Source of the DNA: Candidatus Zixiibacteriota bacterium
GTDB taxonomy: Bacteria > Zixibacteria > MSB-5A5 > SM1-73
Direction of reading: 5' to 3'
NCBI GenBank assembly: GCA_049643405.1
Contig: JBARPX010000080.1
Span: forward strand, 1 to 62,546
Length of the DNA stretch: 62,546 nucleotides
Part shown: positions 23,501-58,491 of the stretch, in pieces
Layout of the letters: each line of letters begins with the position of its first letter
How positions within the stretch are numbered: position 1 is the stretch's first letter
Made by a program: the position numbers and the translations under genes
The notes under the pieces: model-generated
Seen by the model: only the letters and a program-made list of their open reading frames with translations
Databases searched by the model: none
Told to the model about the DNA's origin: nothing

Positions 23501-24243
23501 GCTTATCCGATCCGGCGACGCTGGATGCCACAGACGAAGCCCGGCTCATGACTTACTTAGACAACGGAGGAAGTCTGCTCTTGTCCAGCCAGGACCTGCT
23601 GCTCGATCACAATCCCGATGTTTTCATTACCGACTATCTGCATGTGGCAGGGCACAACGACGACGAGGGCGTCACTTCCGTCTCCGGGGTGAGCGACGAT
23701 ACCATCTCCGACGGCATGTCGTTCGGCCTGAGCTATCCTTTCTACAACTTCTCGGATCACATATTTCCGGGAGCGGAAGCCGCGGGGATATTCTATGAGA
23801 CCAGTAAGGAATCTGCCCCGCCCAGACCCGGGGTACAGATAGACGAGTATGCCGGTGAAGGAGCCGGACCGGTCAACTACTGTGCCCTCCGTTATCCTGC
23901 GTCCGGACCGTCTGTTTATAAGGTGGCCTTCTTCACGTTTGCCATTGAGGCGGTTCCCGAGTCCGGGACCTATCCCAACAATCGTTACACCCTCATGCGG
24001 CGGATCATGAATTGGTTCGGGATAGGCAGAACAGCTTCCGAAGTCATGCATGGTGATGCCAACGGAGATGAGATTATAGATGTAGGGGACGTGGTGTTTC
24101 TGGTCAACTATCTCTACAAAGGTGACGTCCCACCCGCCCCCTGGGAGGCTGGCGACGCCAGCTGCGATGGTGAGGTGGACTTAGGTGACGTGGTTTACCT
24201 GATCAATTACCTGTATAAAGGTGGAGACCCGCCGCCTTGCTAA
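20554..24243 (+). CDS. peptidase C25 (gingipain-family) protein with propeptide, Ig-like repeats and a dockerin-like C-terminal module
   Basis: GGGAGG RBS, signal peptide and a propeptide-like N-domain. YLIIVHEDY..AEWKRKKGF, FFGDVGWIPTY, catalytic-type CYSGHGAS and VLSHACSTN. Tail [54 protein letters not shown]. Confidence 0.85.
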   Translation: MLNPKGLSQLKLMGLVLLLLGWFCFGAAPLWADSNQEWIELTPGMDKIPQISVLESDFQQVVLDLQISGIWSEEVSTKGGIFNRISIPDCGVTNVVGEPNLPVIRKMVQIPYGAEVSVEVIWSKYVKKSLQELGIANRIIPVQPPIPKIEGAAEAAEFVIHEDVYQANAFYQQELAKVGDVGIIRGHRFVTVEISPVSYNPVSGTVRLYSQVQVRVNLTGSDMARTQGMLYRYASPPFEEICREMLINYSAYQDLTKGAPTLPIGYLIIVHEDYQSQAAPLAEWKRKKGFHVTLNVIGDGTSTTTIKNYIQDAYDNWPIPPTYVLFFGDVGWIPTYTGTNSGTATDLYYVQMDGDIFADILRARFPVRNTTEATDMVTKLLYYENPTSPDLEWMRHELFIASSDHASLVEATHGWAIVNYLIPMGIFVDSLWERLGGVTSTAVTNSINAGKAIVCYSGHGASSGWQTGSYDQTDVRNLNNADEYPLVLSHACSTNPFDMTECYGETWVKVANKGGIAFWGASNSSYWDEDDILERRMWDAAFAETCYTVAAMTDKALWHLYQHYGNTSSVRYYFDMYNVNGDPSVDIWTYIAEDLVVTFPGTIPMLPSHAVEINVATQDKGPLYGALVCLRKGAEVFETGYTDASGNITLYVSPASLGNMELTVTAHNQLPFESYISVIPAGDAYLVFESQSVDDDSLGESLGDGDGEVDFAETVEFLVELKNFGDSAAHSTYGIISTTSPYITMVNDSAFWGEVPAGGTATCVNAFVFSVDPNVPDMEMVTFQLDIQATNGSWSYDDITVVAHAPILVYKSKITEDLGGNDNGKPDPGESVDLTITLQNDGSAGVIQVAADLVCVDPYVTIDVSSATYPDMSSGGTGTSLSAYRFTADEECPDGYKVSMTLQISGCGGYYTEEIFEIRIGQRPILFVDDDGGDSHESYIMVALDSVGVLYDVWTHETDGCPPDTIFEQYQSVVWSTGDDYGSLSDPATLDATDEARLMTYLDNGGSLLLSSQDLLLDHNPDVFITDYLHVAGHNDDEGVTSVSGVSDDTISDGMSFGLSYPFYNFSDHIFPGAEAAGIFYETSKESAPPRPGVQIDEYAGEGAGPVNYCALRYPASGPSVYKVAFFTFAIEAVPESGTYPNNRYTLMRRIMNWFGIGRTASEVMHGDANGDEIIDVGDVVFLVNYLYKGDVPPAPWEAGDASCDGEVDLGDVVYLINYLYKGGDPPPC

Positions 24244-24552: not shown

Positions 24553-27500
24553 ATGCCAAGAGCACGTAAAGGCCGCGATCTGAATCTGGAATCCAAGGAA
24601 CCCCTTATCCGGGTTGCTGATAAGCTTGTTGCGTCTACGAAGGAGCTGATGCGCTCGGCAAACACCGAGGAGGACCTGCGAATAGGCTTCGAAAAAATAC
24701 TGGAGCCTTTGTGCGCGGCTATCGGAGTTGAATCACACGCCAAGTACGAGAAGTCCATTTACAGAAGTGGTCGCGCCGATGCATTACATGGACAGGTAAT
24801 CATCGAGTATGAGCGCCCCCAGACCTTTCGCTCGCCCAAGCGGATTGAGCATGCTTACAACCAGCTGATTGAGTATATTCGGGGAGAAGCAAGGGAGAGA
24901 AAAGAAACACTATTCCTACTTGACCCAAAGCTCGTAGGGGTTGGCTTTGATGGCGAACAAATCTTTTTTGTGCAGTATCAAGGAGAGAAAGCCAAGCCGA
25001 AAATCAGGCTTGACAAGAGACATTTCAAGCTAATTGGCCCTTATTCCTTCACCCCGCAAAGTGCACGCACATTTCTGACATACATACGAGCTCTTTCGCG
25101 CCGTCTACTTACAGCAGAGAATCTAGCCGAAGTCTTTGGACCCGACAGCAAACTTGCGCCCCTGGTGGTTTCGGCCCTGGCAGATGCTCTGGAAAACTGG
25201 GACAGCAAGGGACGAGCAAGAACATTCTTTAATGAATGGCGTCGCCTTTTTGGGATTGTGTATGGAGAGCAATTCAATATACAGCAAGCGGAGGAAGTAA
25301 AGAAGCTTTCAGAGTTGTACGAAGTGGGCAAAGAGACTGATTTCCAGAAACTTTTGTTTTCGGTTCATACCTATTTTGTTTTTCTAATGAAGTTGATTGC
25401 GGCGGAGCTTCTTACAATTGCGGAGACCTCGTTTAGATCCTCTTTTTCTGATGATCTGGTTCATTCAGACAGAAAGACTTTGCTTTCTAGGCTCAGGTTC
25501 ATCGAGGATGGGGGTATTTATGCTAACCGCGGGATAGACAATTTCCTTGAAGGAGACTTCTTCCGGTGGTACGTTGATGCTTTTTCACCCCGGGTCGAGG
25601 AAGCTGTCAGGGAGGTGGCCAGGGCACTCTCTGATTTTGAGCCAGCCACTACGGCGTTAAACACTAAATCCAACCGGGATCTTCTGAAAAAACTATATCA
25701 ATATCTTGTGACCCCAGAGGTGCGCCATAAACTGGGAGAGTACTATACACCGGATTGGCTCGCAGAACTCGTACTAAATGAGGTCCGGTTCGATGGCAAC
25801 ACTCGCAAGCGGGTGCTTGATCCGGCCTGCGGTTCTGGAACTTTCTTGGTGCTTGCCATCCAGCGAGCGAAAGAGTATGGATTCACTCACAGAGAGGGAG
25901 CGCTCGAGACTGCCAAGAGAATAGTGGGAAACATATGGGGTTTTGACCTTAATCCTTTAGCCGTGATCGCGGCCCGCACCAACTATCTGTTTGCGCTTGG
26001 GGACTTGGTTAATGAACTGACTGACTTTGAAATCCCGGTTTATCTGGCGGATTCTGTTCTGTGGCCGGAAGAAACAGGGAAATTCGAACTCAACTTCGCT
26101 GGCGGTGAGCACATCGGAATTCAGACCTCTGTTAGGGTATTTCACGTCCCCTACATTTGGGTTAAGGATGAGGGGTTTCTGATGCGGAAAGCTGCGCCAC
26201 TTGTGGAACAGATGGCAAAAGAAAGATACTCCGCTTCTGAGGCTATAGTGGCTCTGAAGAAGAAAGGCCTGGTGTTTCCTCCCCACCAACACGTGGTGAA
26301 GAACTTTTACAGTGAAATACTGCAACTTGAAAAAGAGAGCAAGAACGGTATTTGGGCGCGTTTTCTCAAGAATGCCTTTGCCCCAATGATCGCCGGGAAG
26401 TTCGATTTTGTGGTTGGCAATCCACCTTGGATTCGGTGGGGCTATCTCTCTAGGGATTATCGAGAAGCAACTACGCCACTTTTGAAACAGTATGGTCTGT
26501 ATCAAACGAAGGATTTTGCATCAAGGAATCTGGGTGTGGGTGAAAAAGACTTCTCGATGCTCTTTACCTATGCGGCAACTGATTATTATCTGAAAAACGG
26601 AGCGAAACTGGGCTTCCTCATTACCCAGGAAGTCTTCAAATCGAAGGGAGCGGGAGAAGGGTTCAGACGTTTCCGTTTAAGGGAAAAGGAACCATTCCGT
26701 GTTCTCTCAGCACATGATTTGGTAACGGTGAAGCCGTTTGAAGGTGCAGCAAATAAGACTGCCGCTATCATCCTGCGTAAGGGCCAAGTCTCGACTTATC
26801 CCATCCCGTACAACTTGTGGACCCGTAAGAAGAACGTAGGAAGGGTTCCCACGGACGCGGTTCTGAAGGATGCGCTAGCGCTTCTCCAAAGGAAGAAGCT
26901 TCTTGCGCATCCCATGGGTTCAGCCGTTGGGTCATGGCAGACCATCTCTCAAAGCCAGAAAGGTCTTATGGCTATTGAGGGAAAAAACCCCTATCAGGCG
27001 TGGAGGGGCACTGAAACGGATCCATACGGTGTGCATCTCGTTGATGTAGTTCAACTTCTGTCGAGTGGAGATCTGGTGATTCGCAATCTCGCAGGCCTTG
27101 GAAAAAGGAAGATCCAACAGGTGGAATTGAGAGTCGAGCAAGATTTGATCTATCCCGGAATCCGGGGGCGTGATATAGAGCGATGGGAGATTAGGCCCAC
27201 CGTATTTGTCTTGTTCCCTGTCAATCCTCACAGGAAACAGCCACACTCAGAAACCGAAATGAAAAAGAGGTGGCCGAGAACTTACAGCTATCTTACGACC
27301 TTTCGAGCGGACTTCGAAGCACGAGGTTCTCGCGCGGCAAAGATGTTGGCTGAACGAACAGCCTTCTACGCGATGCTGGGCTACGGGCCTTATACTGTGG
27401 CTCGCTATAAAGTGGTGTGGAAACGGATGGCCAGCGATCTCGTTGCTGCTGTCGTTTCCCATCACAAGACAGAATACGGCTATAAGACGATGATTCCAAT

Positions 27501-27813
27501 TGGCACAACTTCCTTTTTCGCTGTTGATGAGGAGGACGAGGCTCACTATCTCTGCGCCGTCGTCAACTCCACGCCAGTTCGGGAGTTCATCAAGTCCTAT
27601 TCCTCCGCCGGTAGGGGGTTTGGCACACCCTCCGTGATGAACCACGTTGGTATTCGGGCTTTTCGCCCCAAGAACAGACTCCATCAGGAACTCGCTGCAC
27701 TGTCGAAAAACCTTCACGATCTGAAGAAAGAGGATAACTCTGCTGGGATTGCACGTTTGGAGAACGATGTCGACCGCCTAGTTCGTAAGTTGTTTGGCAT
27801 AAGGGATGCATAG
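24553..27813 (+). CDS. large N6-adenine DNA methyltransferase, MmeI-like type IIG/IIL architecture (N-terminal nuclease-like domain, MTase, TRD)
   Basis: GEYYTPDWL, VLDPACGSGTFLV (motif I), VVGNPPWIRW (motif IV). C-terminal YTVARYKVVWKRMASDLVAAVV-type TRD. N-terminal ..GRADALHGQVIIEYERP.. is a PD-(D/E)XK-like segment. Confidence 0.8.
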   Translation: MPRARKGRDLNLESKEPLIRVADKLVASTKELMRSANTEEDLRIGFEKILEPLCAAIGVESHAKYEKSIYRSGRADALHGQVIIEYERPQTFRSPKRIEHAYNQLIEYIRGEARERKETLFLLDPKLVGVGFDGEQIFFVQYQGEKAKPKIRLDKRHFKLIGPYSFTPQSARTFLTYIRALSRRLLTAENLAEVFGPDSKLAPLVVSALADALENWDSKGRARTFFNEWRRLFGIVYGEQFNIQQAEEVKKLSELYEVGKETDFQKLLFSVHTYFVFLMKLIAAELLTIAETSFRSSFSDDLVHSDRKTLLSRLRFIEDGGIYANRGIDNFLEGDFFRWYVDAFSPRVEEAVREVARALSDFEPATTALNTKSNRDLLKKLYQYLVTPEVRHKLGEYYTPDWLAELVLNEVRFDGNTRKRVLDPACGSGTFLVLAIQRAKEYGFTHREGALETAKRIVGNIWGFDLNPLAVIAARTNYLFALGDLVNELTDFEIPVYLADSVLWPEETGKFELNFAGGEHIGIQTSVRVFHVPYIWVKDEGFLMRKAAPLVEQMAKERYSASEAIVALKKKGLVFPPHQHVVKNFYSEILQLEKESKNGIWARFLKNAFAPMIAGKFDFVVGNPPWIRWGYLSRDYREATTPLLKQYGLYQTKDFASRNLGVGEKDFSMLFTYAATDYYLKNGAKLGFLITQEVFKSKGAGEGFRRFRLREKEPFRVLSAHDLVTVKPFEGAANKTAAIILRKGQVSTYPIPYNLWTRKKNVGRVPTDAVLKDALALLQRKKLLAHPMGSAVGSWQTISQSQKGLMAIEGKNPYQAWRGTETDPYGVHLVDVVQLLSSGDLVIRNLAGLGKRKIQQVELRVEQDLIYPGIRGRDIERWEIRPTVFVLFPVNPHRKQPHSETEMKKRWPRTYSYLTTFRADFEARGSRAAKMLAERTAFYAMLGYGPYTVARYKVVWKRMASDLVAAVVSHHKTEYGYKTMIPIGTTSFFAVDEEDEAHYLCAVVNSTPVREFIKSYSSAGRGFGTPSVMNHVGIRAFRPKNRLHQELAALSKNLHDLKKEDNSAGIARLENDVDRLVRKLFGIRDA

Positions 27814-30963: not shown

Positions 30964-31038
30964 GGGCGGTTAGCTCAGCTGGTTTAGAGTGTCTGCCTTA
31001 CACGCAGAAGGTCACTGGTTCGAACCCAGTACCGCCCA
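30964..31038 (+). tRNA. tRNA-Val (anticodon TAC)
   Basis: Hand-folded cloverleaf: acceptor GGGCGGT/ACCGCCC, anticodon stem TCTGC/GCAGA with loop CTTACAC, T-arm ACTGG-TTCGAAC-CCAGT. No encoded CCA. Confidence 0.9.
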
Positions 31039-31133: not shown

Positions 31134-31208
31134 GGGGTCGTAGTTCAGTCTGGTTAGAACGCTGGCCTGTCAAGCCAGAGGTCGCGAGTTCAACTCTCGT
31201 CGGCCCCG
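31134..31208 (+). tRNA. tRNA-Asp (anticodon GTC)
   Basis: Acceptor GGGGTCG/CGGCCCC, anticodon stem CTGGC/GCCAG with loop CTGTCAA, T-arm GCGAG-TTCAACT-CTCGT. Confidence 0.9.
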
Positions 31209-38983: not shown

Positions 38984-40456
38984 TCAGCGCGCGAGGAGTT
39001 CCTCGATTTTTCCTGCGACCTTGGTTGCGGCGCCGCCATAATTGGCCATCACGGCCACGCTATACCCGCTGGTGAGGTACATATCCAAATTAGCATTGAT
39101 GCCCGGTGCGCCGCCACCGTGTCCCAAAATCCGGTGGCCGTTTACGGTCTTATCCTGGAAAAGATAGGCATACATGCCTTCAGGGCCCATCTGTGTTTTG
39201 CCAGTGGTGAGGGTGTCGAAGGCTTCCTTGCTGATCAGCTTGTTGCTCCGCAGAGCAATATCGAAGCTCAACAGGTCCTCAACCGTGGAGAATCCACCTC
39301 CGGCCGGACCACCCTTGACCACGTGCATGAAGAGATTATTGCGCCACGAGCCGTCCGAAGTGGGGCTCCCGTCATGGTTCATTTTGGTGTAACCGATGGC
39401 CAGATTGGGCACCGGTGTATCCATCTCATAACAGTCAGTGTTGATCATTCCAGCCGGCTTGTGGATTTTCTCCCTCACATAATCATAGTAGTCCTGCCCG
39501 GTGACTGCTTCAATGACCATCCCCAGGACGATGGGACCGGAATTGCTGTAATGAAAATCTGTTCCCGGCTCGAAAAGGAGCGAATCATCGAAAATCAACT
39601 CAGCCAGCTGGTCAACGGTTTTGATCTCCCACCAGTGGGCATCATAAACCTCGTCCCAGTAGTCCTGCATTCCCGAAGTGTGAGTCAGCAGGTGGTGAAT
39701 GGTCACTTTCTCGGCGATCTCAGGACGAGGCAGGTCAGGCAGATATTTGCCCACAAGGTCGTTGAGGGATACCTTGCCCTGTTCGACCAACTGCATGATG
39801 GCCACACCGGTGAACATCTTGTTCATGGATCCTAAGTTGAACTTGGTGTCGAGCTTGTTCGGGACATTGAATCGCTTGCTGGCCAGCCCCTCTACCCGTG
39901 TGTAGAACGGTTTGCCATCCTTTGCGATCAGTACGGTGCCTGAAAACTGATCTTTGGACACTAAGTTGTCCAGGTAACGGTCAAGGAAATCGAGTATCTG
40001 CTCCTGTGTCAGATCGCCTTCCGGCGCTTCAAATCCCGGTTCCTCTCCAGGCCGAACAGAGAGCATGTCGAGCTTATGAGGGGGCAGGGTATCAGCCTGG
40101 AGAGACATCATCACCCACTCAAACGGCCCGGTGGGCTGTTTGGCCTGCAGGAGGGCGGAGACGAAATAGTCGTCAGATTCCTCAATCCGGTGAAGGATCA
40201 AGCCGCCCACGTCAGCATACACCATCGTGAAGAACTCAAGACGGCGCTCAAACGTGCTCCCCTCTTTCTCCTTCCAGTGATTCTTGATGAAACCCGTCCA
40301 CTGGTTTTCATCCCCGGAATTGAACGCCTCTAACAGGCGGCTCAATAGCTTGCCTGCTTGGGTGTCCGGTATCTCAGGCGGCGACTGCTGAGCGACAGCG
40401 GGAACGACGAGAGCGCATACGAGTATGAAGACGAAAATCGTCGAGATGTACCGCAT
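38984..40456 (-). CDS. serine hydrolase of the beta-lactamase/PBP (class C-like) family
   Basis: AAGGAGG RBS and signal peptide from the ATG at 40456. S-x-x-K (LGSMNKMFT), Y-x-N (HYSNSG) and the GHGGGAPG box. Confidence 0.8.
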   Translation of the reverse strand: MRYISTIFVFILVCALVVPAVAQQSPPEIPDTQAGKLLSRLLEAFNSGDENQWTGFIKNHWKEKEGSTFERRLEFFTMVYADVGGLILHRIEESDDYFVSALLQAKQPTGPFEWVMMSLQADTLPPHKLDMLSVRPGEEPGFEAPEGDLTQEQILDFLDRYLDNLVSKDQFSGTVLIAKDGKPFYTRVEGLASKRFNVPNKLDTKFNLGSMNKMFTGVAIMQLVEQGKVSLNDLVGKYLPDLPRPEIAEKVTIHHLLTHTSGMQDYWDEVYDAHWWEIKTVDQLAELIFDDSLLFEPGTDFHYSNSGPIVLGMVIEAVTGQDYYDYVREKIHKPAGMINTDCYEMDTPVPNLAIGYTKMNHDGSPTSDGSWRNNLFMHVVKGGPAGGGFSTVEDLLSFDIALRSNKLISKEAFDTLTTGKTQMGPEGMYAYLFQDKTVNGHRILGHGGGAPGINANLDMYLTSGYSVAVMANYGGAATKVAGKIEELLAR

Positions 40457-40789
40457 GTGAGTAGGTCCTCCTTTACTTAGGTTGAGTGAAGATGTTTTTG
40501 CGTCCGGATTGCTGACCCGTATTTCATGTAAGTACTTACGCAAATATGTTCGATTAAGTTGCCGGTTTCTTCGGTTCTCGAACGGCTCATTCGTGGCGTA
40601 CTTGGAAGCACGAATGTGAAGATTTTAGCCTGTGTGCCCCCCTCGCGAAGTCTGTCTGACATGGACAGATCCGCCTCTGGCGGAGAGACTGCGGCTACCC
40701 CCGCCTCGTCCCGTCATTGGCTCGCCCGCGGTGAAGATGACCGGCGACAGATTGGAAGGTGTCAGTCTTTGATGATTATTTCCTCTAAC

Positions 40790-42334: not shown

Positions 42335-43402
42335 TCAATCGTGGAGATCAAAACCTAACCCGGGCTTGCCTGTCGGAAACAGGACTCCGTCCTTGAGAAT
42401 AACCGCTCCGGCCGAAGGATCGTCGATTAAGTCGAGGTGCCCGTCCAGATCGGCATAGACCACGTTCGGCCGCGCTAAAGCGAAATGGAGCCCTGCGGCG
42501 ATTCCCAATGCTGCCTCATCCATGCATCCTACCATGACCTCAAGATTGGCCGCTCTGGCAACTGCGTTGATCTGTAGGGCCTCGGAAATGCCCCCGACTT
42601 TCATCAGCTTGACGTTGACCATATCTGCCAAATTGCGCCTTGCTAATCGGAATGCGTCCCGCAAGTTCATCAGACTTTCGTCAGCCATCACCGGGATCGC
42701 GGCCCCGTTGGTCACCCTTCCCAGCAGGTCAAGCTGGCCCTTGGGAGTGGGCTGTTCCAGAAGTTCGATTTTAGCAGAGCGGCTAGCCTTAACAAAGTGA
42801 AGTGATTCCTCCACCGAATAGCCCTGATTGGCGTCAAAGCGCAGCGCGATCGACTTGCCCACTGCCTCCCGTACCTTCATCACCCTGTCAATATCTATGT
42901 CGACGTCCTTTCCCCCCTTGATCTTCAGCACCTTGAAGCCTTTTGCCACGAGATCTCTGGCCTTGACTACGGTTTCTTCCAAAGGAAGTATGCCGATGGT
43001 GACGCTGGTCTTGATACGATCCCGGAAACCACCGAACAGCTTGTGAACTGGAAGACCGGCGACCTTACCCAATATGTCATGGAGAGCCATGTCGGCCATA
43101 GCAAGGGCGGAAGGGTGTGCCTGTAAGTTTGGCTTCAACCTTTCCAGAAGGAGAGCCAGTCGTAGAGGATCGCTGCCTCTAAGAGACGGCTCGATCCATT
43201 CCTTGAAGACCTCCAGCACACCGTCGGGACTCTCGCCCGTAACTTCAAAATCTGGGGCGGCACAGCCGTATCCCGTGACCCCGCTGGTGGTCTGAATGGC
43301 CAGGAAGACGTTTGTGGCCGAGTCGATGGTCTCGTAGGCGATGGTGTAGGGCTCGGCTAGGCGCATCTTAACCTGCCAGGCTTGGAGGCGAGTGATTCTC
43401 AT
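42335..43402 (-). CDS. enolase-superfamily dipeptide / N-acyl-amino-acid epimerase (MLE subgroup)
   Basis: VLKIKGGKD (K-x-K), [25 protein letters not shown] and MVGCMDE. The start is ATG at 43402 or TTG at 43444. Confidence 0.8.
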
Positions 43403-43421
43403 AGATTTTCTTGCCTGAATA

Positions 43422-45782
43422 TCATTTTTGGTAGATTTGCTCAAGGGTCATGCTCTTCAGGTCTTCCACCAACGCCACCAGGTGGGCGATCATGATCTCC
43501 CAAATCTTCTTGCCCTTCTCTGCAGTCGCTTTGCTGGGATCGCCCATAACGCCGGTGGGCGAGATCTTCTTGGTGTGGGCATACCATAACACACCGCGCT
43601 TTGAGCTGAAGTTCAAGTATCGGCTGGAGAACTTCGGAACCAGTTTGGTGGCTTTGTCCAGCCTGACCAGATGAGGCCGCACGGCCAGGCTGGTGCTGGT
43701 CTCAATCTCGCCAGCATGGACATCGTTCGGCGTTTCAACCAGTTTGCTGATATCCACGTCGCTGGTCTCTCCCGTGTCCACACAGACGAAAATGCGCGCA
43801 TCGCGATTAATCATCTGAGCCGCATAATCGAGCGCAGGAGTATTGCCGCCGTGAGCGTTTACGATGACCAGCTTGTTAATACCGTTCTGAGCCGCGCTCA
43901 TGCCTATCTCGTATACCAAACCGGAAAGCGTGGCATTGCTGATGCTGAGGGTTCCCTTGAAGTCTTCATGGTGATATGAGACCCCGTAAGGGATCAGCGG
44001 CAGCACCAACGGCTTGGGGCTGCTGCAGGCTTCTGCTACCCGTCTGGCCAGGTACTCAGCGTCGAATGCATCGGTGCCCACGGGAAGGTGAGGACCGTGC
44101 TGCTCGGTGGAACCTACAGGAAGAAGCGCGATATCCACATCTTTGAATTTTCTCTCGGCCTCAGGCCAGGTCAACTCAACCCACAGGTAAGTGTCTTCAG
44201 CAGCCCCGGATGCTCTGGCGGAGATTTTATGGATTGAGCCTGGACCCAGCTCAAAAGGGTAAGGTCGGCTTATATCCGGATCGTTAAGCGGGTCGAATTC
44301 CGTCCACCTTCGTTCAACTCGTCGCACCGCACCGTCGGAGTGTTCCAAGAGCATCCTATAGAGCGGTTTTCGGAGGTCCGGCGGAATCCCACCGACAGGA
44401 GATCTCTCCTGATTGAACCTGAGCTTCAGAATAACCGGGTGCTCTCTGGCGGATCTCTTTCGCTCCTCCGGCAGTTCAACCAGGCCCTTTTGGGATAGCA
44501 GGAAAGTCAGGTGCTCGGAACCGGAGACCTCCTGATGTACTCCCTTGACGGCCACGTCCTTGAGGCAGCTTTTGATCTGCCCATCAGAATAACCACAGCG
44601 TCCGGGATCAGCACCAATCGCCATCAGCATCCCCACAATTCGGCGACATTTCTCGCATCTGCCGCAGGGACGCATTCTCTGGTCCTCTCTATGCGTGGCA
44701 TGGCATGAGAGCTGGTGTTCCTGCAGGTGAGGATAGCGTTCCTCCAGTGTCTCTTGAATCAGCATCTCAGAAAGCTGACGTAAGATGGAGAACTGGCTGA
44801 TGGCCCAGCCCTTCTGCATATAGTATCTGGAAAGCGCCTCGTCGAAATACCGGCTCTGATCGTAGAGCCCGTCGTAATGCGTGATTCCATGGGAAGAAGT
44901 GCGGTGAGTGGTATCGTATTCGTCTCCTATAACCACACGGCCTATGCCCCGCTTCCGCAGAAGGGGCAACGCCCCGAACAGGAAAACCGCCACGGTCCAG
45001 AGCCGGATGGGATACTCGTCCGAGCGGATGTCGGCGAAATCCGGGCGGATGAAGGGCATATGACGCAGCATCCAGGCGAATACCCGGTCGGAATTCACCC
45101 ACACTCTGGCCGTGTTGGGTATGTTCTGCTTGAAAAAGCGAAAGGCGTTCAGAGCCGTAAACCAGTGGCGTCCGGACTCGTTTACGAAAATGGGGTGCGT
45201 CTCCATTCCCATCTCATTCAACAGACCGAAGCTGAGCAAACTATCCTTGCCGCCGCTGGAAAGAATGCAATGGCGTCTCCTGTCGGTTGGCCAGAGTCGC
45301 CAGCTTGCCATGGAGGCGCCGGAATCGGGGAACTCCAAGCCGGCCCGCAGGTAGGGTTTCCTTTTCTCAACCGGCAAATGAGCGGCATCACCGATCAGGA
45401 AAGGATTCGGCTCCAGGAATTTCTTAACGTAGATCTCGCGGGCCGTATTCTCCGCCATATCCAGAATGAACCGGCGATCCTTCTGATCGAATGAACCGTG
45501 GAAGACAATCTTATTACAGAAGAGACCATAGTTGATGGCCGCCTGCGCCGCGATCATGGCCGCTAAATTCTGGGATGCATCGTCGGAAGGGTCAAATACG
45601 TCCCCCTCGTAACTGTAAATCAAATCGTAGCTGTCTTCCTTGCCTTGCTGAGAGAGCCGGTAAGGAGCGAGCAACCGTCGTCGCTCAAGCCTTACGGGAC
45701 CTACTTCCAGCCGGTCAAAAACCTCCAGAGCGGACAGAGGATCATTCTGTCTTTCAGGTCTGGAATGAGCATCCATAACCAT
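43422..45782 (-). CDS. fusion protein: unknown N-domain + QueC-like PP-loop ATP pyrophosphatase + creatininase-family amidohydrolase
   Basis: PP-loop ILSSGGKDS and Cys cluster C-x12-CGRCEKCRR (QueC-like). C-terminal [28 protein letters not shown] and HAGEIETS (creatininase/MftE/ArfB family). Confidence 0.8.
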
Positions 45783-45895
45783 CAATCCCTGGTTTGCCTC
45801 ACTTAGGCCTTTGCTGTTTTCATCATCAATACGCTCAGTCTGTTACCAAATCATTGATAGGAGCTGTCCTTTAGATGATCCCCCGGGTCCCTGCG

Positions 45896-46972
45896 CTAAG
45901 CCTTGATATGCGGCAATAGTGCTTTTGCCAGGCCCTCCGCGCCGGAGATCAGCACGTCCATAGTCGGCAGGCCTGTCTGCTTCTGAATTGCAGCAGAAAT
46001 GGCTGAAACGTCCTCAGCCGTCATCCCTTCATGATTCAGAGTAATGGCCACCACCGGCTTGCCAGAGAGGAGCTGGATTGCCTGGATCTGCTTTGCCAGC
46101 GGATGCACCGGGTAACCCGGAAAACCGTCGTAATCCTTGCGAGCCGGCGCGTGCTGCAGTACGATCACATCCGGCCTGCCGGCAGCCAGAATCTCAAACC
46201 CACCCGGATATGCGGGATTCATCAGGCTTCCCTGGCCTTCAATCACGATCACGTCCGCTCGAGTTTCGCTCCACGCCGTCCAGACGACGTGCTCGATTTC
46301 TCCGGAGACGAAATCATTTATCAGAGAGTCCAAGATAATACAGTACCTGGCACCTTGCATCCATGAAGTCTGGCCGGTTCCAACCATTTCGGCACGGAAT
46401 CCGGCATCTTGCAGCGCCTGGACCAGCATCCAGGCAGTGGTACGTTTACCTACCGCCGAATCCGTCCCCAGCAACGCCACCTTAAGGGAGCTGACTTCTT
46501 CTATTTTGCCACTGAAGAAATGCAGCTGATTTCGCGGCGGCGGCTTGCGAATGTCGCGAATTTCCGTGCCATTTCGATGAGTCAAATCGACGATCTCCGG
46601 ATCCTCCGAGAGGAAGTCGTGAAGACCCGAGTCCACATTCAAGCCCAACTTGACAGCCTCTTTGACATCTTCACGCGCCGAGTGGCTCAGCCGGCCTCCG
46701 TCGGGCGCTAATCCTATCACCAGATGAGTGGGCCGGATTCCCCAATTCCGGCCAGCCTGAACTACCTGTTCTATAGTGGCGAAGATCGGAATCCCCTTGG
46801 GCTTTCCGTCCAACACAGCTCCGGCATCCTGGTTCTGGTAGCGGGAGTCGATGACCGAAAGCACCTGATAGCGCCTGGTGAAGCGAACCAGACCATGAGC
46901 GGTTTTGCCATTGGGAGTGTTGAGGGCTCCCTGGCAGTAGACAATGGCGTTTCCCTCAGGCAGCAAGCTCAT
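45896..46972 (-). CDS. DUF1611-family P-loop protein (DgcN-like)
   Basis: N-terminal Rossmann-like AIVYCQGALNTPNGKTAHGLVR, P-loop LGTDSAVGKRTTA, about 358 aa. The start overlaps the upstream stop (ATGA). Confidence 0.7.
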   Translation of the reverse strand: MSLLPEGNAIVYCQGALNTPNGKTAHGLVRFTRRYQVLSVIDSRYQNQDAGAVLDGKPKGIPIFATIEQVVQAGRNWGIRPTHLVIGLAPDGGRLSHSAREDVKEAVKLGLNVDSGLHDFLSEDPEIVDLTHRNGTEIRDIRKPPPRNQLHFFSGKIEEVSSLKVALLGTDSAVGKRTTAWMLVQALQDAGFRAEMVGTGQTSWMQGARYCIILDSLINDFVSGEIEHVVWTAWSETRADVIVIEGQGSLMNPAYPGGFEILAAGRPDVIVLQHAPARKDYDGFPGYPVHPLAKQIQAIQLLSGKPVVAITLNHEGMTAEDVSAISAAIQKQTGLPTMDVLISGAEGLAKALLPHIKA

Positions 46973-48057
46973 GATCTTTTCCCGGTCAGGACTACAACGT
47001 AACGATCGTTTGGCAAGGCCTCTTTGCGATGGTGCTCTACCAGCGCGATCAAGCCGGCAGTCGAAGCCGGCAGCACGTGCATCCCCTCCTTCTCTCGCAG
47101 CAGCTTGGAGAAGGTCAGCATGTTCTTGTCGGAGATGTAGGCCGCAAAACCTTTCGATTGCCGAATAGCCCCGAGAGCAACGTCGCCGTCGATAGAATGC
47201 CAGTTAACCAGAGGTTCGTTAACCTTGGTCTCATGGATGCGCTCCGGTCGAAGGTCCACGCATGTCGCGCTATTCTGAATGAGTGCCTGCACGATAGGAT
47301 TCTTCCTGAACGAAGAGCCAGCAACCATCCGGGGGATTCGGGAGGTTTTGCCGCGTCGGTAAAGGCTCAAGAATCCCTTGAAGATGCCGGCCAGAGTAGT
47401 ACCGTTGGATACCGGGACGCCCACCATAAAAGGCGCATCGCGCAACTCGTCATAGATTTCATAAGCGATTTCTCCATAGGCCCGCAGCTGCAGGGAAGTG
47501 TTCTCTCCACCGGGATTGGCATCATAGAACTCGTGTCTTTCGGCATCCTCTTTGGAGGTCTCTACTGCCCTCTCGTAGTCACCCGGCACTCGAACGATCT
47601 CCGCTCCCCGGTCGGTAATCTCCTTGATTCGTTTGGTCTGATAGTCTTGGGGGAGGTGAATCAAACACCGCAGCCCGGCGAGTGAAGCAGCCAGCGCCAT
47701 GGATGCACCGTAGTTTCCACAGGTAGCGACGGTAATGGTATCGAATCCTCTCCTCATGGCGTCCATGGCCTGGGCAAAAGCGATCCGATCCTTCTGCGTG
47801 CCGGTAGGATTGGCACCCTCGAATTTAAGGTAAATCTGTCGCAATCCCACCTCGCGTTCGATGTTGCGTGCCCGCCAAAGAGAAGTGTCTCCCACCTCCG
47901 AATCGATGATATCCTCGTAAGCCTCCTGCCGTTTCTCCAGGGGATATGTCTTGTCAGTTGCGATCCTACGCTGTTGCTTGATCTCCTCTGAGATCTCCAC
48001 TGCCTGACCTGAAGCTCCATCCATCAGGTCGTACGGAGTTTCAAGATCTGCGGACAT
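46969..48057 (-). CDS. fold-type II PLP-dependent enzyme (threonine synthase/cysteine synthase-like)
   Basis: AGGAGGG RBS. KFEGANPTGTQKDR (PLP-Lys motif), the ATCGNYGAS and VPVSNGTT(L)AG loops. Confidence 0.75.
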   Translation of the reverse strand: MSADLETPYDLMDGASGQAVEISEEIKQQRRIATDKTYPLEKRQEAYEDIIDSEVGDTSLWRARNIEREVGLRQIYLKFEGANPTGTQKDRIAFAQAMDAMRRGFDTITVATCGNYGASMALAASLAGLRCLIHLPQDYQTKRIKEITDRGAEIVRVPGDYERAVETSKEDAERHEFYDANPGGENTSLQLRAYGEIAYEIYDELRDAPFMVGVPVSNGTTLAGIFKGFLSLYRRGKTSRIPRMVAGSSFRKNPIVQALIQNSATCVDLRPERIHETKVNEPLVNWHSIDGDVALGAIRQSKGFAAYISDKNMLTFSKLLREKEGMHVLPASTAGLIALVEHHRKEALPNDRYVVVLTGKRS

Positions 48058-48207: not shown

Positions 48208-49032
48208 TCATTCTATCCGATAGACGATTCCCCAGGCTTTGAACTCGTATTCGGTGGTATCGCTGGCAAATGACTCCCGGCTGACTAAGTCCACAATGGC
48301 ATGATAATAGTGTTTTCCCGGCTTCGGGTCCTCAATGGTAGTCCAGCTTGCGGCGAAACTCCCCTCTCCCTCTCTGACGAACGGAATCTTCTGATACTCC
48401 TCTCCCTCCTTCACGTGAAGGAAGAGGGAATCAGTAGTATCAGCTGGCTCAACGATAAAGGTCACCTGCTTCCCCCTGCCGAACTCAATCGTACTGTCCT
48501 TGTTGACAAGCAGCACCATGCCGGGCTCGTAGATGAAGGTATCTATTCCTTCGGAGACAATCTGCAGCTCGTCAATCTCTCTTGAACCGTCTATCGAGAT
48601 GATTACGGTCCCGCTGACTCTTCTCAGCAGCCAGCCCAGGTTAGGATCGTTGATATTTCCCCACCTCTCGAAATAGGCTTTGGTTCGGGTTTTGAAGACA
48701 ATTGGCTTTTCGTGTGGATGTCCGCTCGAGTCGTAGTGGAGTTTACCAATTAGGCTATCACTCCATGTCAGGGTGATGTAATCAGGATCCGCCTCGAAAA
48801 GCTCCCCTTCTTCTATATCCGCCTGACTGGATATTATCTCCCGATAAAAGAATTGAGTATCCAACTCGGTACCAAAGAATCCTAAGCGAAATATGGTGGG
48901 ATACTGAGATATGATCGCCTTAACCGCGTCCCAGTCAGTAACCCCCGGGGTCACAGTTCTCTTCTCGCAACTCGCCTGAAACAGGCAAAGCACGAGCAAG
49001 CAAACCAGCAGGGCCAACAGAGCTCTTCTCAT
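48208..49032 (-). CDS. lipoprotein of unknown function (274 aa)
   Basis: The start overlaps the uvrB stop (ATGA). Lipobox LFQAS-C. No domain recognised. Confidence 0.7.
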
Positions 49033-51246: not shown

Positions 51247-54200
51247 CTATTTCAGTGGAGCGCCACAAGGGGTGGGCGGAGAGAGTTTCTGTTTCTGCCC
51301 ATCCGGCCTGGCAAACCTGGGGGCTGGAACCGGTGGAGGGCCACCCCTGTAAAGATAGTTGATCAAAAAGATCACATCTCCGATGTCGGTAATTTCATCT
51401 CTGTTGACATCACCTAATATTTGAATGTAGGGGGCAGGTCCATTCTTGTACAGGTAGTTGATCAAATAAACGACGTCCCCGATGTCAATTACCCTATCTA
51501 AGTTCACGTCTCCTAAGAGATAAGCCTGAGAAAAGTTCACCAAGCCCAAGGATGGAACGTCGGATTGGTGAAAGATCTCTTGCTCAATCTGTGCGACGGT
51601 CGAAGTTCCCCAGTAGTTGTAAGTGGCATCGATGTCATCGTTGCAGTATTCTAAGTAGAGCTCGGAGCTGTCGTTATCATAGATGAGGTTGTAGAGGGCG
51701 GAGTCACCGCCGATGGTGACCAGCACATCCTCCGTTGTGTCCACGGCGGACTCATTCAACACTATCCCCAGCCAGTTGTTGACTATCTGGTTGTTGGTGA
51801 GATTTCCTCTCACATCTCCCGCTCCCCAATCCGTGTAATTGGAGATATAGAAACCCAGTGCCTGGGGCTGGTTCTGGCCATCGAATAGGTTACCATCTAC
51901 GGTGTTGAAGCCACTCCCCAGCCCATACATCACCATCCCATACCTGCAGCCCAGGATAGTATCGTTAGAGGTGCTCACTTCCGCGTTAATTGCGATGGTT
52001 TGAATACCTTGATTCGAATCGGTGATCTTGTTGTTTACCAGATATGTGGGCTGATCGTTTCCGTTAACCCCAATTCCTAACTCACAGCTGTCAACCGAAT
52101 TGAAGCTCACCTCTCCGTCCGAGCCATTCTGCAAGAATATTCCATAGGAAGCTACTCCGATCCGGTTATTTGTGATCGTTCCGCTTGCATCCCACAGCAT
52201 GATTCCGGCGGATTGCATTGAGACACCGGCGGCATTGTATACGGTGTTGTCGGTAATTTCAATGCCTGAAACAGAGCTCTGGGCTGAAGGATAGATAGCC
52301 CTCAGATAAACGTTGTTCACAGAGCAGTTCCTTACCTTCAGATTGTCCCAGTCGCCCAGTGTATGATTGGAGATGATCCCGTTGCGAGCGTCCAGAGTGC
52401 CGACGGGTGTCAGAGTGGGGTTGTCTCCATCAAAGGTGAGTCCGTCAATAAGGACGTTATCTGCTTGCACTACCACCATCTGTGAACCCTGGAACGAGGG
52501 GCCTGAAGGTGGGCCCACGTTGGAAGAATCGGTATAGACCAAAACCGAGTCCCGACCTTCTCCCAGCAGAGCCAGCCCTTTGTCGATCACTATATTCTCG
52601 ACATATGTGCCCGGCAATACCCTCACCGAATCTGCTTCACTGGCAAAGTCAATCCCCTCCTGGATCGCGCCCGTGGTATCCACGAGATAGATCATGGGAG
52701 TTGTGCCTACCGCATATCCCAGCCAGGGACTGTAAGCCACATTTTGAGTTATCGCATCCCCAGCGCCAAAGTTCTTGCCACCGCTGGCTACCAGCTCGGC
52801 CTTTCTGCCGAATCTCATGTCAACATTTTCCTCGGGGGTGGATGGCAGAGCCGATACATTCTCGCTGGCAAACTTTCCACCAGTCGCAGGACCCCAGTAG
52901 TCTCCCCACCAGTTAGCAGAGGCATTCAGAGAGCTCGCCTCCTGGTTTACCGCCCCATATTTGACGTTCCCGGCAATGTCATTCCGATTGATCTGAGCTT
53001 GAGCGGCTGATCCGTCCTCGACCCAGACACCATAATCGTTGTCGTGAATATGAGAATTCGTCACGGCGATAGTGGTGGGCACGCCGTAACCGTAGCACAT
53101 TATGCCAACTGAAGCCCACTCAGGATCAGGGTGGAGGTTCCGACTGTTGAAAACCTCGGTATTACTTACCTCGACAGTTGCACCATAATCGGCCTCAACT
53201 GCGTTGGTAAGCCTAAGGGAATCGTCGAGCACCGGAGCTTCCACCACGCAGTCTGTGATTTGTCCCGAAGCGCTAGCCCCATAGTAGAAGATTCCAGCCT
53301 TGCCGAAGCTTCGGACGGTGTCCTGGGTGAGGTGGAAGACAGAGTTTCCCCAGATTCCTATGGCACAGCCATTGGACCACTCGGTGACGTTGTTCGGGGA
53401 AATAACACCTTCAGTGAAAGTGCCTCTTGTATCCTCGACGATAACTCCATACCTGGGAGTGCCGGACGGGGGTCCCTGTACTTCTATTCCTGTTAGATTT
53501 ACGCCTAGAGACCTTTTGAGAAAGACTATCGTCGTTCGGTCTCCGTAAGCTGTCGATACTGTCTGATTGCCGGTCACTACCGCGCCACTTTGCCCCTCGA
53601 CACTCAACGATTTCGAATCCACAGTGAATGGTGCGTAAGTGCCAGCGGCCACGTTGATGACATCGCTGCCAGAAGCTACATCAACGGCGTCCTGGATGGA
53701 GTCGTCCGTGCCCCAGGTCATCGGACTCGTGCCCACTGGGACGCCAAGCCAGGGACTATAGTCAGCCGTGGCATTGCAGCTGTTGTTGCCATCTACTCCA
53801 GGTGCACCAATTCCCCCACCGCCCCAGTAGTTATATCTAACATCAAGGGCCGCAGTGCACCCTCCGCCAAATCCCGCGGAATTTCCATAGATGTCATTAT
53901 AGTTAACGGTGATTCCGGTTATGTCGTTGTCGTGTTTCTCTACTCCGGTTCCACTGGCGGTAATTGTGTTATGGTGGACATTGACTCCTGTTGCTCCAGC
54001 CCGTAAAGCTATCGCTCCATATGTAACGTTGGAAATCTGGTTGTAGCTGACCGTGCTGTTATCGGCAGCTTGATCCACCCAGATTCCGTCCGAACCACCG
54101 CCATCAACGAGATTGTAGCTGATGTCCACTTGAGAACCACCCCAGAATCTTATAGGCGTGTGGCCCGAACCAGTAATAGTGTTGTGAAGGATTTGATTCC

Positions 54201-54894
54201 TGTCACCCACATGGTTGAGGGCCATTATGCCCATATACTGGCTATTCAAGATGTGGTTATGCTCGATGGTGACATCGTCATTCCCTACGGTCCAAATCCC
54301 CCCGCCCTGCCAGTCAGGAGACGTAGTACCACTGATCGTGTTGTAACCTATGTAGGCGAAGTCACACTGGTTGTAGACAGGTCCTGCTGCTATTCCGTGG
54401 AGGTGGATGGCACCCCAGTGCCCATCAGCGTTTAGCGAGATATTGTAGCTGATGTTCACATACCAGGCATGATCATAGCCCACGTTTATGGGGTAGCCGG
54501 TCTTGAAGCCATTCACCGTGACATAGTCGGCGGTAATCATGATCGTACTGGTTATCAGAGACTCGTCAATGTCACCAGCGCCTCCTCTGGTGGTTGCTCC
54601 AGCCGGATCAATGTTGTACTGCGCACCACGTACCTCGATGTTTGCCGCCGCGACGGTAAAGCCTGCATAGGTGCCCGCTGCCACGTTGATGACATCGCCG
54701 GACGTAGCATCGTCAATCGCATCTTGAATGTTGCAATACACTATCGAATATGGATCAGGTTGTCCAGAGCCGGATACGCAGGCTGGGTCGTTGACATCTA
54801 CATTGATTGTTCCCGCCCACACCGATCCAACCAACAGAAACAGCATGCCTGCCGACAGGCAAATTGTCCCTTTAATCGTTCTCTTTAAGTTCAT
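51247..54894 (-). CDS. 1215-aa secreted right-handed beta-helix (PbH1-repeat) protein with a dockerin-like C-terminal module
   Basis: GAAGGGGAAGAG RBS and signal peptide. Many N.I..N/G-type beta-helix turns and repeated [12 protein letters not shown] segments. Tail [53 protein letters not shown] plus a 27-aa Pro-rich extension. Confidence 0.85.
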
Positions 54895-58406: not shown

Positions 58407-58491
58407 GGAGAGGTGCCGGAGCGGTTTATCGGGGCGGTCTCGAAAACCGTTGTGCCGTAAGGCACCCCGGGTTCGAATCCCGGCCTCTCCG
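58407..58491 (+). tRNA. tRNA-Ser (anticodon CGA), long variable arm
   Basis: Acceptor GGAGAGG/CCTCTCC, anticodon loop CTCGAAA, variable arm GTGCC-GTAA-GGCAC, T-arm CCGGG-TTCGAAT-CCCGG. Confidence 0.9.

Follow-up and report, generated by a model that had tools for sequence, protein, structure and literature searches.

A four-gene cassette with a predicted QueC-fold PP-loop domain and a core trio common to Thermoplasmatota: a candidate amino acid pathway

What do four adjacent minus-strand genes of a Zixibacteria contig do together? They lie on contig JBARPX010000080.1 of assembly GCA_049643405.1 (Candidatus Zixiibacteriota bacterium), whose 62,546 nt analyzed here are referred to as the window. 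In the direction of transcription, they encode a fold-type II pyridoxal phosphate (PLP) enzyme (gene 1), a DUF1611 protein (gene 2), a fusion of a PP-loop domain to a creatininase domain (gene 3), and an enolase-superfamily epimerase (gene 4) (Table 1). A preliminary description, made from the sequence alone, had read them as an operon for a candidate amino acid or dipeptide pathway and knew of no described system with this composition. No published description of the combination, of the family of the N-terminal half of the fusion protein (the N-domain), or of the cross-domain core reported below was found in the literature that we searched either, nor is a system of this composition mentioned in a survey of QueC-family proteins from 2026.

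The layout was as first described. An open reading frame (ORF) check confirmed the four minus-strand ORFs and their coordinates, and Pfam and NCBIfam scoring confirmed the PLP, DUF1611, creatininase, and epimerase domains in an operon-like arrangement. The junctions could also be read directly in the sequence: the stop codon of gene 1 is overlapped by the ATG of gene 2 (ATGA; GATCATGAGC), the gap upstream of the fusion gene is 113 nt to its ATG and 110 nt to a TTG (about 110 nt in the preliminary description), and 19 nt precede the ATG of the epimerase gene, with a spacing of 19–23 nt in orthologues too. Promoter and terminator scans gave results no different from those for shuffled sequence, and Rfam revealed no riboswitch in or near the cassette.

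A scan of genomes with the fusion protein, one genome per species, returned 80 loci, and full-length homologues of this protein number in the thousands. Among the 62 genome loci that had room on both sides, 56 carried all four genes in the same order. Upstream of the fusion gene, the PLP and DUF1611 genes were present in 63 of 67 loci; downstream, the epimerase gene was present in 69 of 73. The 80 carrier loci came from Zixibacteria, Ignavibacteria, Desulfobacterota, Bacteroidota, Calditrichia, KSB1, and Eiseniibacteriota, including the cultured Bacteroidota Flexithrix, Muriicola, Zeaxanthinibacter, Croceitalea, and Kordia, and a Zixibacteria homologue of the fusion protein with 94% identity evidently represents the window's own lineage. 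Clustering of all flanking ORFs of these 80 loci revealed no further conserved neighbor, the next-commonest family being present in 11, and no conserved transporter or regulator; UvrB and the other window neighbors were common to the closest relatives only. A reverse search of metagenomes from the PLP enzyme showed the DUF1611 gene adjoining it in 55 of 59 loci and a PP-loop gene in every locus with room, whereas two components were less constant: the creatininase domain, present in 25 of 36, and the epimerase gene, which was in its canonical position in 20 of 30. The four genes are one module that has been kept together across phyla, far beyond chance. The preliminary description had named two observations that would speak against a shared pathway, namely an absence of co-occurrence in other genomes and a clear housekeeping identity (queuosine genes nearby, or a bona fide threonine synthase), and neither was found. 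In two loci from long-read metagenome-assembled genomes (L053, 6874–9507; L065, 6915–11370), the DUF1611, fusion, and epimerase genes were split over several frames, for which indel sequencing error is more likely than pseudogenization.

An exhaustive search with the N-domain yielded 457 family representatives at 50% clustering, and the family includes stand-alone forms of approximately 470–520 amino acids. In Thermoplasma volcanium GSS1, Picrophilus, and other Thermoplasmatota, a stand-alone N-domain gene follows a PLP gene (Pfam PALP) and a DUF1611 gene, and the T. volcanium PLP enzyme and DUF1611 protein were 44% and 48% identical, respectively, to the window proteins. One protein, P0124 (855 amino acids), is a DUF1611 protein fused to a PP-loop domain. 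Intermediate arrangements were also observed: PLP, DUF1611, N-domain, and epimerase genes without a creatininase domain (L081, L108); PLP and fusion genes without a DUF1611 gene (L080, L129, L153); and a DUF1611 gene followed by an N-domain gene (L093, L098). The ancient core is the PLP enzyme, the DUF1611 protein, and the PP-loop enzyme, common to Thermoplasmatota, and not a DUF1611–racemase pair; the epimerase and creatininase are add-ons to this trio. An epimerase of the dipeptide type and a metallo-hydrolase were added in bacteria and, separately, in sediment Thermoplasmatota, the hydrolase being a fused creatininase domain or an independent M14 carboxypeptidase. Because the Thermoplasmatota carriers have no cell wall, the core is not a murein or cell-wall function.

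A further variant, type B, occurred at six metagenome loci (L134, L146, L156, L164, L170, and L176; e.g. L146, 5902–12584). Here, the order is PLP, DUF1611, and stand-alone N-domain, with convergent genes on the other strand for an epimerase, a 449-amino-acid protein, and a GNAT. The identities to the window proteins were 69% (PLP enzyme), 39% (DUF1611), 31% (N-domain), and 44% (epimerase); a PLP enzyme identity so far above those of the DUF1611 and PP-loop proteins suggests inter-domain transfer or mosaic evolution. Homologues of the 449-amino-acid protein, from sediment Thermoplasmatota, carry Pfam Peptidase_M14. The type-B epimerase retains every catalytic residue, the DLD motif, and the Glu24 discussed below. 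The GNAT is RimI-like, and a GNAT gene also lies downstream of the stand-alone N-domain gene in L086–L088, recurring in variants that are without the creatininase fusion. The divergent homologues P0233 and P0190, which have no cassette partners, probably have other functions. Two other candidates were set aside. The D-aminoacyl-tRNA deacylase DTD2 adjoins the trio in L091 and L094 and is absent in Picrophilus, a pattern of lineage synteny; and a fusion of the PP-loop domain to an S-adenosylmethionine-dependent methyltransferase without creatininase (P0123; L101, 506–2983) was found on one contig of approximately 3× coverage and was disregarded as a possible assembly artefact.

The least familiar component is the N-domain, which consists of an extension (amino acids 1–160), a core (165–400), and a C-terminal extension (400–510). 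It had no Pfam match at an E-value of 10 or below, PF06508 included, no sequence match in the PDB, no match to QueC, QatC, or Cap9 profiles, and no QueC match in NCBIfam (TIGR00364), and a profile of 36 diverse members gave only sub-threshold P-loop matches against PDB sequences. An AlphaFold2 model built with 30 homologues had a predicted local distance difference test score (pLDDT) of 86.8 and a predicted template modeling score (pTM) of 0.88. In a Foldseek search against the PDB, this model matched QatC (E-value 1e-5, approximately 450 columns), Cap9 (1e-3), and then other PP-loop enzymes, and against QueC the template modeling scores normalized on the target were in the range 0.70–0.73 (0.70 for 2PG3 and 0.72 for 3BL5). 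The PP-loop motif SSGGKDS, invariant in the 30 close homologues and nearly so in the 36 diverse ones, aligned to SGGQDS of E. coli QueC, and the four cysteines of C(x)12CxxCxxC, a predicted metal site that corresponds to C(x)8CxxCxxC of QueC, were invariant or nearly so. Alignment of the N-domain to E. coli QueC with hhalign gave an E-value of 0.017. The N-domain is, as its predicted structure indicates, a hitherto unrecognized PP-loop enzyme of QueC-type fold.

QueC adenylates a carboxylate and passes it to an amine; its motifs are the zinc-binding C(x)8CxxCxxC, YxQxHxxE, VPxRN, and YPDC, with Y35, R99, and Y131 essential (PMC13329287). QatC and Cap9 likewise activate a carboxylate by adenylation for transfer to an amine, and QatC has extensions around the QueC core (PMC13279940). 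The N-domain resembles these three proteins in its predicted fold, the SGGxDS motif, a putative C...CxxCxxC metal site, and QatC-like extensions, but differs in the x12 spacing, in its amino acid enzyme partners, and in the replacement of the deazaguanine residues: in the profile alignment, YGQRH of QueC aligned to ESGRH (Y35 to E, Q37 to G), and YPDC was absent, with HYDGLYDQS at that spacing. A possible counterpart of VPxRN, the YPIR motif of the family, lay five residues away in the hhalign profile alignment. Some homologues are labeled '7-cyano-7-deazaguanine synthase' in IMG. The early assignment of this half as a QueC-like PP-loop domain therefore holds for the fold (QueC, QatC, and Cap9) and the SGGKDS motif and fails at the level of sequence profiles, where QueC gives way to MurL as the closest characterized relative.

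The MurL model NF041275 matched 13 of the 36 diverse N-domain members, with a best E-value of 4.9e-6, and the window protein scored 19 bits against a cutoff of 700. Because genuine E. coli QueC gave no MurL match, this signal is not a generic zinc-ribbon effect. MurL is an ATP- and Mg-dependent, AMP-forming, unidirectional epimerase of the C-terminal Glu of a peptide, is without known domains, and has been proposed to act via an adenylate of the C-terminal alpha-carboxyl group (PMC5808125, PMC8788868). The N-domain appears to be distantly related to MurL, its sole characterized sequence relative. The cassette would share with the MurD2–MurL system an ATP-dependent, AMP-forming chemistry on an amide-held C-terminal residue, with ATP giving direction; it differs in having no Mur ligase or UDP-MurNAc context, in its occurrence in wall-less archaea, and in its separate enolase-type epimerase. 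A family of approximately 500 amino acids that has no Pfam model would in this way link MurL to the QueC fold and provide a structural hypothesis for the MurL mechanism.

The C-terminal half of the fusion protein matched Pfam Creatininase (PF02633) over the full length of the model (amino acids 536–772; E-value 3e-73; 247 bits against a cutoff of 31), with conservation of EQHGPH...D, NAHGGN, and HAGEIETS, which we take to be the metal ligands of a binuclear-metal amidohydrolase. PDB matches were 3NO4 and 3LUB. Among creatininase-family enzymes (creatininase, MftE, and ArfB deformylase), it is nearest to MftE, a peptidyl-dipeptidase that cleaves an amide near the C-terminus, but it scored below the cutoffs for both MftE (TIGR03964; 156 against 172 bits) and creatininase (TIGR04448; 109 against 235) and has a PP-loop enzyme as its fusion partner; the surroundings contained no genes for mycofactocin, creatinine, or riboflavin. 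An unrelated M14 zinc carboxypeptidase takes its place in type-B cassettes, beside an epimerase of the same kind; this is the strongest indication that the creatininase step would cleave the amide to the C-terminal residue, and the archaeal replacement also backs the deacylase role suggested for the domain in the preliminary description. In joining a hydrolase to a PP-loop synthetase, the architecture recalls NAD synthetase, GMP synthase, and asparagine synthetase, but here the hydrolase is a creatininase-fold metalloenzyme, and no tunnel or fixed packing could be discerned in the model. Creatininase-fold metalloenzymes are not known to release ammonia. The full-length AlphaFold2 model had a pTM of 0.64, with pLDDT below 50 at amino acids 513–543, and the linker was the block of lowest conservation.

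Gene 4 matched Pfam MR_MLE_N and MR_MLE_C, and its PDB matches were 3RIT (E-value 4.6e-69), 1JPM (YkfB, 7.4e-69), and 3JVA (2e-67). In 62 orthologues aligned to YkfB, the catalytic KxK, the second Lys, and the three metal ligands were kept (LKIKGG, FDANQ, LEQP, MADES, and VKLMKVG), and ADLDGH was invariant. This DxD motif is present in 1JPM, 3RIT, 3JVA, and 3Q45, whereas the N-succinyl-amino-acid racemase 2P88 has VELTGP in its place. At the position of YkfB Arg24, the orthologues have Glu (57), Gln (4), or Asp (1). We take DxD to bind the N-terminal ammonium of a dipeptide and YkfB Arg24 to bind the side-chain carboxylate of Glu. Because Glu replaces this Arg, the side chain of the substrate would not be acidic and would possibly be cationic, and both the DxD motif and Glu24 argue against N-acetyl-Glu as the substrate. 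No equivalog cutoff was reached: scores were 240 against 500 bits for dipeptide epimerase (NF041118), 83 against 343 for NF011708, and 150 against 400 for DgcA (NF042940). By its alignment, gene 4 belongs to the dipeptide-epimerase (AEE) clade of the enolase superfamily. Its likeness to YkfB/YcjG, 3RIT, 3JVA, and TM0006 lies in E-values of approximately 1e-68, the catalytic Lys, the metal ligands, and DxD; it differs from YkfB/YcjG in its scores below all equivalog cutoffs, in Glu24, and in having no murein-recycling or peptide-transport partners.

Gene 1 matched Pfam PALP (E-value 1.3e-52) and NF004996 (PRK06381, 'threonine synthase'), scoring 437 bits against a cutoff of 266, with 494 bits for the T. 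volcanium and 471 for the Picrophilus orthologue. On the thrC model TIGR00260, however, it reached 101 bits against a cutoff of 167, and orthologues from Thermoplasma, Picrophilus, and others reached 85–93. It shares with ThrC the fold-type II PLP fold and the NPTGxxKDR motif, whose Lys89 (NPTGTQKDR, the PLP Schiff-base Lys motif) was invariant, and ThrC structures are its closest solved relatives (E-value 1e-27). We take ASTGNT of ThrC to be the Asn loop and NSxNPxRxEGQK to be the phosphate-binding segment with its Arg; compared with 2ZSJ, 2D1F, and 1UIM, gene 1 has a different Asn loop (ATCGNYG) and an invariant YDANPGGxN...Q...Y instead of NSVNPxRxEGQK, with no conserved Arg. In contrast to ThrC, its gene invariably accompanies those for DUF1611 and the PP-loop enzyme and never thrA or thrB. 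These features suggest a ThrC-like enzyme (cf. cysteate synthase) that is very probably not a threonine synthase. The NF004996 equivalog in effect models the PLP enzyme of this cassette, 'threonine synthase' being a legacy label, and annotations of the PRK06381 family as threonine synthase by the Prokaryotic Genome Annotation Pipeline (PGAP) are probably wrong. Further members of this PLP enzyme family lie at L094 (4966–5916) and L095 (5017–5964).

Gene 2 matched Pfam DUF1611 (E-value 1.9e-64) and DUF1611_N (2.1e-24), an architecture of a Rossmann-like N-terminal domain and a P-loop domain, and its PDB matches were 2G0T (4.5e-43), 2OBN, and 7XRJ (2.9e-28). Its relative DgcN is an acetyl-CoA-dependent N-acetyltransferase. 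On the DgcN model NF041892, whose cutoff is 480 bits, gene 2 scored 154 and the archaeal orthologues scored 170–190, which points to a paralogue rather than an orthologue of DgcN. This paralogue is common in Bacteroidota. Metagenomic surveys count 'dgcN' by homology and list Bacteroidia among the carriers (PMC12363236); such counts may include the cassette paralogue and distort estimates of D-amino-acid turnover.

How might these enzymes act together? With somewhat less than even confidence, we propose that the cassette encodes one uncharacterized small-molecule pathway acting on an alpha-amino acid held as the C-terminal residue of a dipeptide-like (N-acyl or N-aminoacyl) intermediate; our confidence in any particular substrate is much less than in this general scheme. 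The PLP enzyme would make, or finally consume, a non-standard amino acid by beta/gamma-elimination-replacement, and the DUF1611 protein and/or the PP-loop enzyme would put this amino acid into amide linkage. The PP-loop enzyme would adenylate a carboxylate, either to form the amide or, like MurL, to activate the C-terminal alpha-carboxylate. The enolase-type enzyme, whose DxD motif implies that the N-terminal ammonium is free, would then invert the C-alpha of the C-terminal residue. Cleavage of the amide by the creatininase domain or the M14 enzyme would finally free the amino acid, probably in the D-configuration. Overall, an unusual amino acid would be synthesized or stereo-inverted in one direction at the expense of ATP. 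The scheme centers on the C-terminal residue because MurL-like, dipeptide-epimerase, and MftE-like or M14 enzymes all act there, and it includes an acylation theme because DUF1611 is homologous to DgcN and GNATs recur in the variants.

The components are all members of known superfamilies, with a logic like that of DgcN–DgcA and MurD2–MurL; there is a substantial chance that the cassette represents a new pathway. In a more far-reaching form, which we advance tentatively and rate clearly short of an even chance, it would be a new primary pathway spanning both domains, in which QueC-fold, MurL-related adenylating enzymes work with the PLP enzyme and DUF1611 to produce a non-canonical amino acid, probably basic and D-configured, or its amide or dipeptide, the PP-loop enzyme and the metallo-hydrolase forming an ATP-driven 'activate, invert, release' machine on a C-terminal residue. 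If this were true, MurL would belong to the QueC-fold PP-loop superfamily, which would explain its 'unprecedented' mechanism.

Several points weigh against the proposed scheme. Each of its chemical steps is assigned from family membership. The cultured Thermoplasmatales carry the trio without an adjoining epimerase or hydrolase, and epimerization and release may therefore not be the essence of the pathway. Were the PP-loop enzyme a MurL-type epimerase, the enolase-type epimerase would look redundant; were it a ligase, DUF1611 would be left without a clear role. The acyl group would be an aminoacyl group to judge by the DxD motif but an acetyl group to judge by the homology to DgcN and the GNATs. 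The DgcN score of DUF1611 also falls well short of the cutoff, and a P-loop such as its GTDSAVGKRTT would suit an ATP-using enzyme too. The MurL similarity is weak (19–25 bits) and confined to approximately 80 residues around the Zn ribbon, and the archaeal members tested gave no MurL match. No structural coupling of the two fusion halves is seen in the full-length model. The synteny has exceptions, with no epimerase gene in L037, L043, and L068, no PLP or DUF1611 gene in L018 and L070, and no DUF1611 gene in L080, L117, L129, L144, and L153.

The alternative that survives best is an extended catabolic route of the DgcN/DgcA type, in which DUF1611 would acetylate a D-amino acid, the enolase-type enzyme would racemize it, the creatininase domain would deacetylate the L-form, and the PLP enzyme would deaminate or convert the product, with the PP-loop enzyme as an accessory. 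DgcN–DgcA is an accepted irreversible racemization pathway (PMC10845958, PMC12363236). The two systems are alike in encoding a DUF1611 protein and an enolase-type racemase together and in the sequence of amide formation, C-alpha inversion, and amide cleavage, and the amidohydrolase fused in cis and the GNATs recurring in variant cassettes are also in keeping with such a route. The preliminary description had likened genes 2 and 4 to DgcN and DgcA; homology to both stands, but orthology does not, as neither score comes near its equivalog cutoff (154 of 480 bits for gene 2 and 150 of 400 for gene 4). The epimerase is better matched by dipeptide-epimerase models and has retained the DxD that 2P88 is without, Glu24 opposes an acidic substrate, and the conserved transporter or regulator usual in catabolic clusters is missing from the cassette neighborhood. 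DgcA is an enolase-type N-acetyl-D-Glu racemase, and the DgcN–DgcA pathway for D-glutamate has no PLP or PP-loop enzyme and a separate deacetylase, whereas the most constant partners here, the PLP and PP-loop enzymes, are not needed by the catabolic scheme, the hydrolase is fused in cis, and the core in Thermoplasma is racemase-free. We consider this route unlikely.

A second alternative is the supply of a D-amino acid by way of a transient dipeptide: the PP-loop enzyme would ligate a carrier amino acid to the PLP product, the epimerase would invert the C-terminal residue, and the hydrolase would split the L-D dipeptide, with recycling of the carrier. It is a sub-version of the scheme favored here, with the PP-loop enzyme as ligase and a free D-amino acid as product. 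Amide formation by QueC-fold enzymes proceeds through acyl-adenylates, the DxD signature is present in the epimerase, the putative ligase and the hydrolase are parts of one fusion protein, and the M14 replacement would free a C-terminal residue; the logic parallels that of MurD2 (ligase) and MurL (epimerase) (PMC8788868). Against this, DUF1611 is left without a role, the ligase of Thermoplasma and Picrophilus has neither an epimerase nor a hydrolase in its vicinity, dipeptide synthesis is not known for any PP-loop enzyme, and there is no sign that wall-less archaea need D-amino acids, so that this version appears rather improbable.

Less probable again is a thiocarboxylate route to a sulfur amino acid, in which the PP-loop enzyme would adenylate a carboxylate and turn it into a thiocarboxylate, the PLP enzyme would take this as its sulfur nucleophile, and, after an S-to-N acyl shift to an N-acyl (dipeptide-like) product, the hydrolase would free Cys or homocysteine. 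The pairing of a ThrC-like PLP enzyme with a hydrolase is the logic of the CysM/CysO/Mec and MetM/MetO systems. Many PP-loop enzymes are sulfur transferases, with TtuA, MnmA, NcsA, and LarE among the structural or P-loop neighbors of the N-domain, and the N-domain family has extra conserved cysteines, C89 and C396. The four-Cys pattern, however, is that of the QueC structural Zn site and not of a 3-Cys Fe-S site, the conserved neighbors include no sulfur-carrier protein, rhodanese, or cysteine desulfurase, and the epimerase with its Glu24 would be unexplained.

The cassette is not one for threonine synthesis, queuosine synthesis, murein metabolism, or phage defense. Murein-peptide recycling or an alternative D-Glu supply, after the manner of YkfB/YcjG with MpaA or of MurD2 with MurL, is disfavored as highly improbable. 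The epimerase is nearest to L-Ala-D/L-Glu epimerases, the PP-loop domain is distantly MurL-like, and E. coli mpaA–ycjG pairs an M14 enzyme with an epimerase, as type B does. Yet the core trio and type B occur in Thermoplasmatota, which have no murein, the YkfB Arg is replaced by Glu in 57 of the 62 orthologues, the MurL score is 19 bits against 700, and no MurD2 or mur gene lies nearby.

Scarcely any weight remains for 7-deazaguanine (queuosine/preQ0) metabolism or for deazaguanylation or phage defense of the Cap9/QatC type, also disfavored. The best structural matches (QatC, QueC, and Cap9), the QatC-like extensions, and the IMG annotation of some homologues speak for it, but the N-domain does not match PF06508 even at an E-value of 10 and has lost Y35, Q37, and YPDC as described above, no que, QatA/B/D, or CBASS (CD-NTase/Cap10) genes are conserved nearby, PADLOC gave no relevant match for the five proteins scanned, and the partners are amino acid enzymes. 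Finally, a chance neighborhood of unrelated housekeeping genes, for which only the passing NF004996 'threonine synthase' score could be cited, is refuted by the conserved gene order over at least six bacterial phyla and Archaea, the ATGA coupling, the P0124 fusion, and a PLP enzyme that is below the thrC cutoff and without the ThrC phosphate-binding motif.

The proposed pathway is directly testable, as this widespread cassette with no assigned function is present in cultured, tractable strains (T. volcanium, Picrophilus, Flexithrix dorotheae, Kordia, Muriicola, and Zeaxanthinibacter), and the exchange of creatininase for M14 together with the DUF1611 fusion offers a comparative framework for assigning the steps. 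The coordinates of the cassette features are given in Table 1.

Table 1. Features of the cassette, with positions in the window
Feature	Position	Strand	Details
Gene 1, PLP enzyme	46969–48057	−	362 aa, fold-type II, PRK06381 family
Schiff-base Lys motif NPTGTQKDR (Lys89)	47785–47811	−	gene 1
Gene 2, DUF1611 protein	45896–46972	−	358 aa
DUF1611 P-loop GTDSAVGKRTT	46436–46468	−	gene 2
Gene 3, fusion ORF	43422–45785	−	787 aa from TTG; 786 aa from ATG at 45782
N-terminal half, PP-loop domain	44247–45782	−	gene 3, aa 1–512
PP-loop motif SSGGKDS	45240–45260	−	gene 3, aa 175–181; translation verified
Cys cluster C360-(x12)-C373-x2-C376-x2-C379	44646–44705	−	gene 3; translation verified
Inter-half linker	44178–44246	−	gene 3, about aa 513–535; predicted disordered, poorly conserved
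C-terminal half, creatininase domain	43422–44177	−	gene 3, aa 536–786
Creatininase metal-ligand motifs	EQHGPH 44088–44105; NAHGGN 43842–43859; HAGEIETS 43695–43718	−	
Gene 4, enolase-superfamily epimerase	42335–43402 (ORF 42335–43444)	−	355 aa from ATG at 43402
Epimerase DLD motif	42443–42451	−	gene 4

The large window ORFs that were checked included no queuosine, threonine-pathway, or mur genes; the neighbors of the cassette include UvrB, a catalase, and an aldehyde dehydrogenase. Upstream, 150 nt from the cassette, a 274-amino-acid ORF (48208–49032, minus strand) overlaps the uvrB stop by 4 nt; it had no Pfam, NCBIfam, or PADLOC match and was conserved only in Zixibacteria and Ignavibacteria relatives (L001, L003–L005). 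Downstream, 1.8 kb away on the same strand, lies a gene (38984–40543, minus strand) whose product has a beta-lactamase fold, matches D-aminopeptidase/AmpH-like proteins weakly, and is extended at its N-terminus by approximately 180 amino acids. It is outside the cassette, being common only to the nearest relative (L001), although the proximity of a D-stereospecific peptidase is suggestive.

Elsewhere in the window, two plus-strand ORFs (1660–3504, 614 amino acids; 4787–6166, 459 amino acids) had no Pfam match at 1e-5. Dockerin type I domains were found in two proteins, a beta-helix/NosD-like protein of 1215 amino acids (51247–54894, minus strand) and a peptidase C25 (gingipain-like) protein of 1229 amino acids (20554–24243, plus strand), which hints at cohesin–dockerin surface assemblies in this Zixibacteria-like genome. 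Rfam identified three tRNA genes, two in tandem (30964–31038 and 31134–31208) and one at 58407–58491. A 1086-amino-acid protein (24553–27813, plus strand) with Eco57I/MmeI-type N6-adenine methyltransferase domains is a probable type IIG restriction-modification enzyme.

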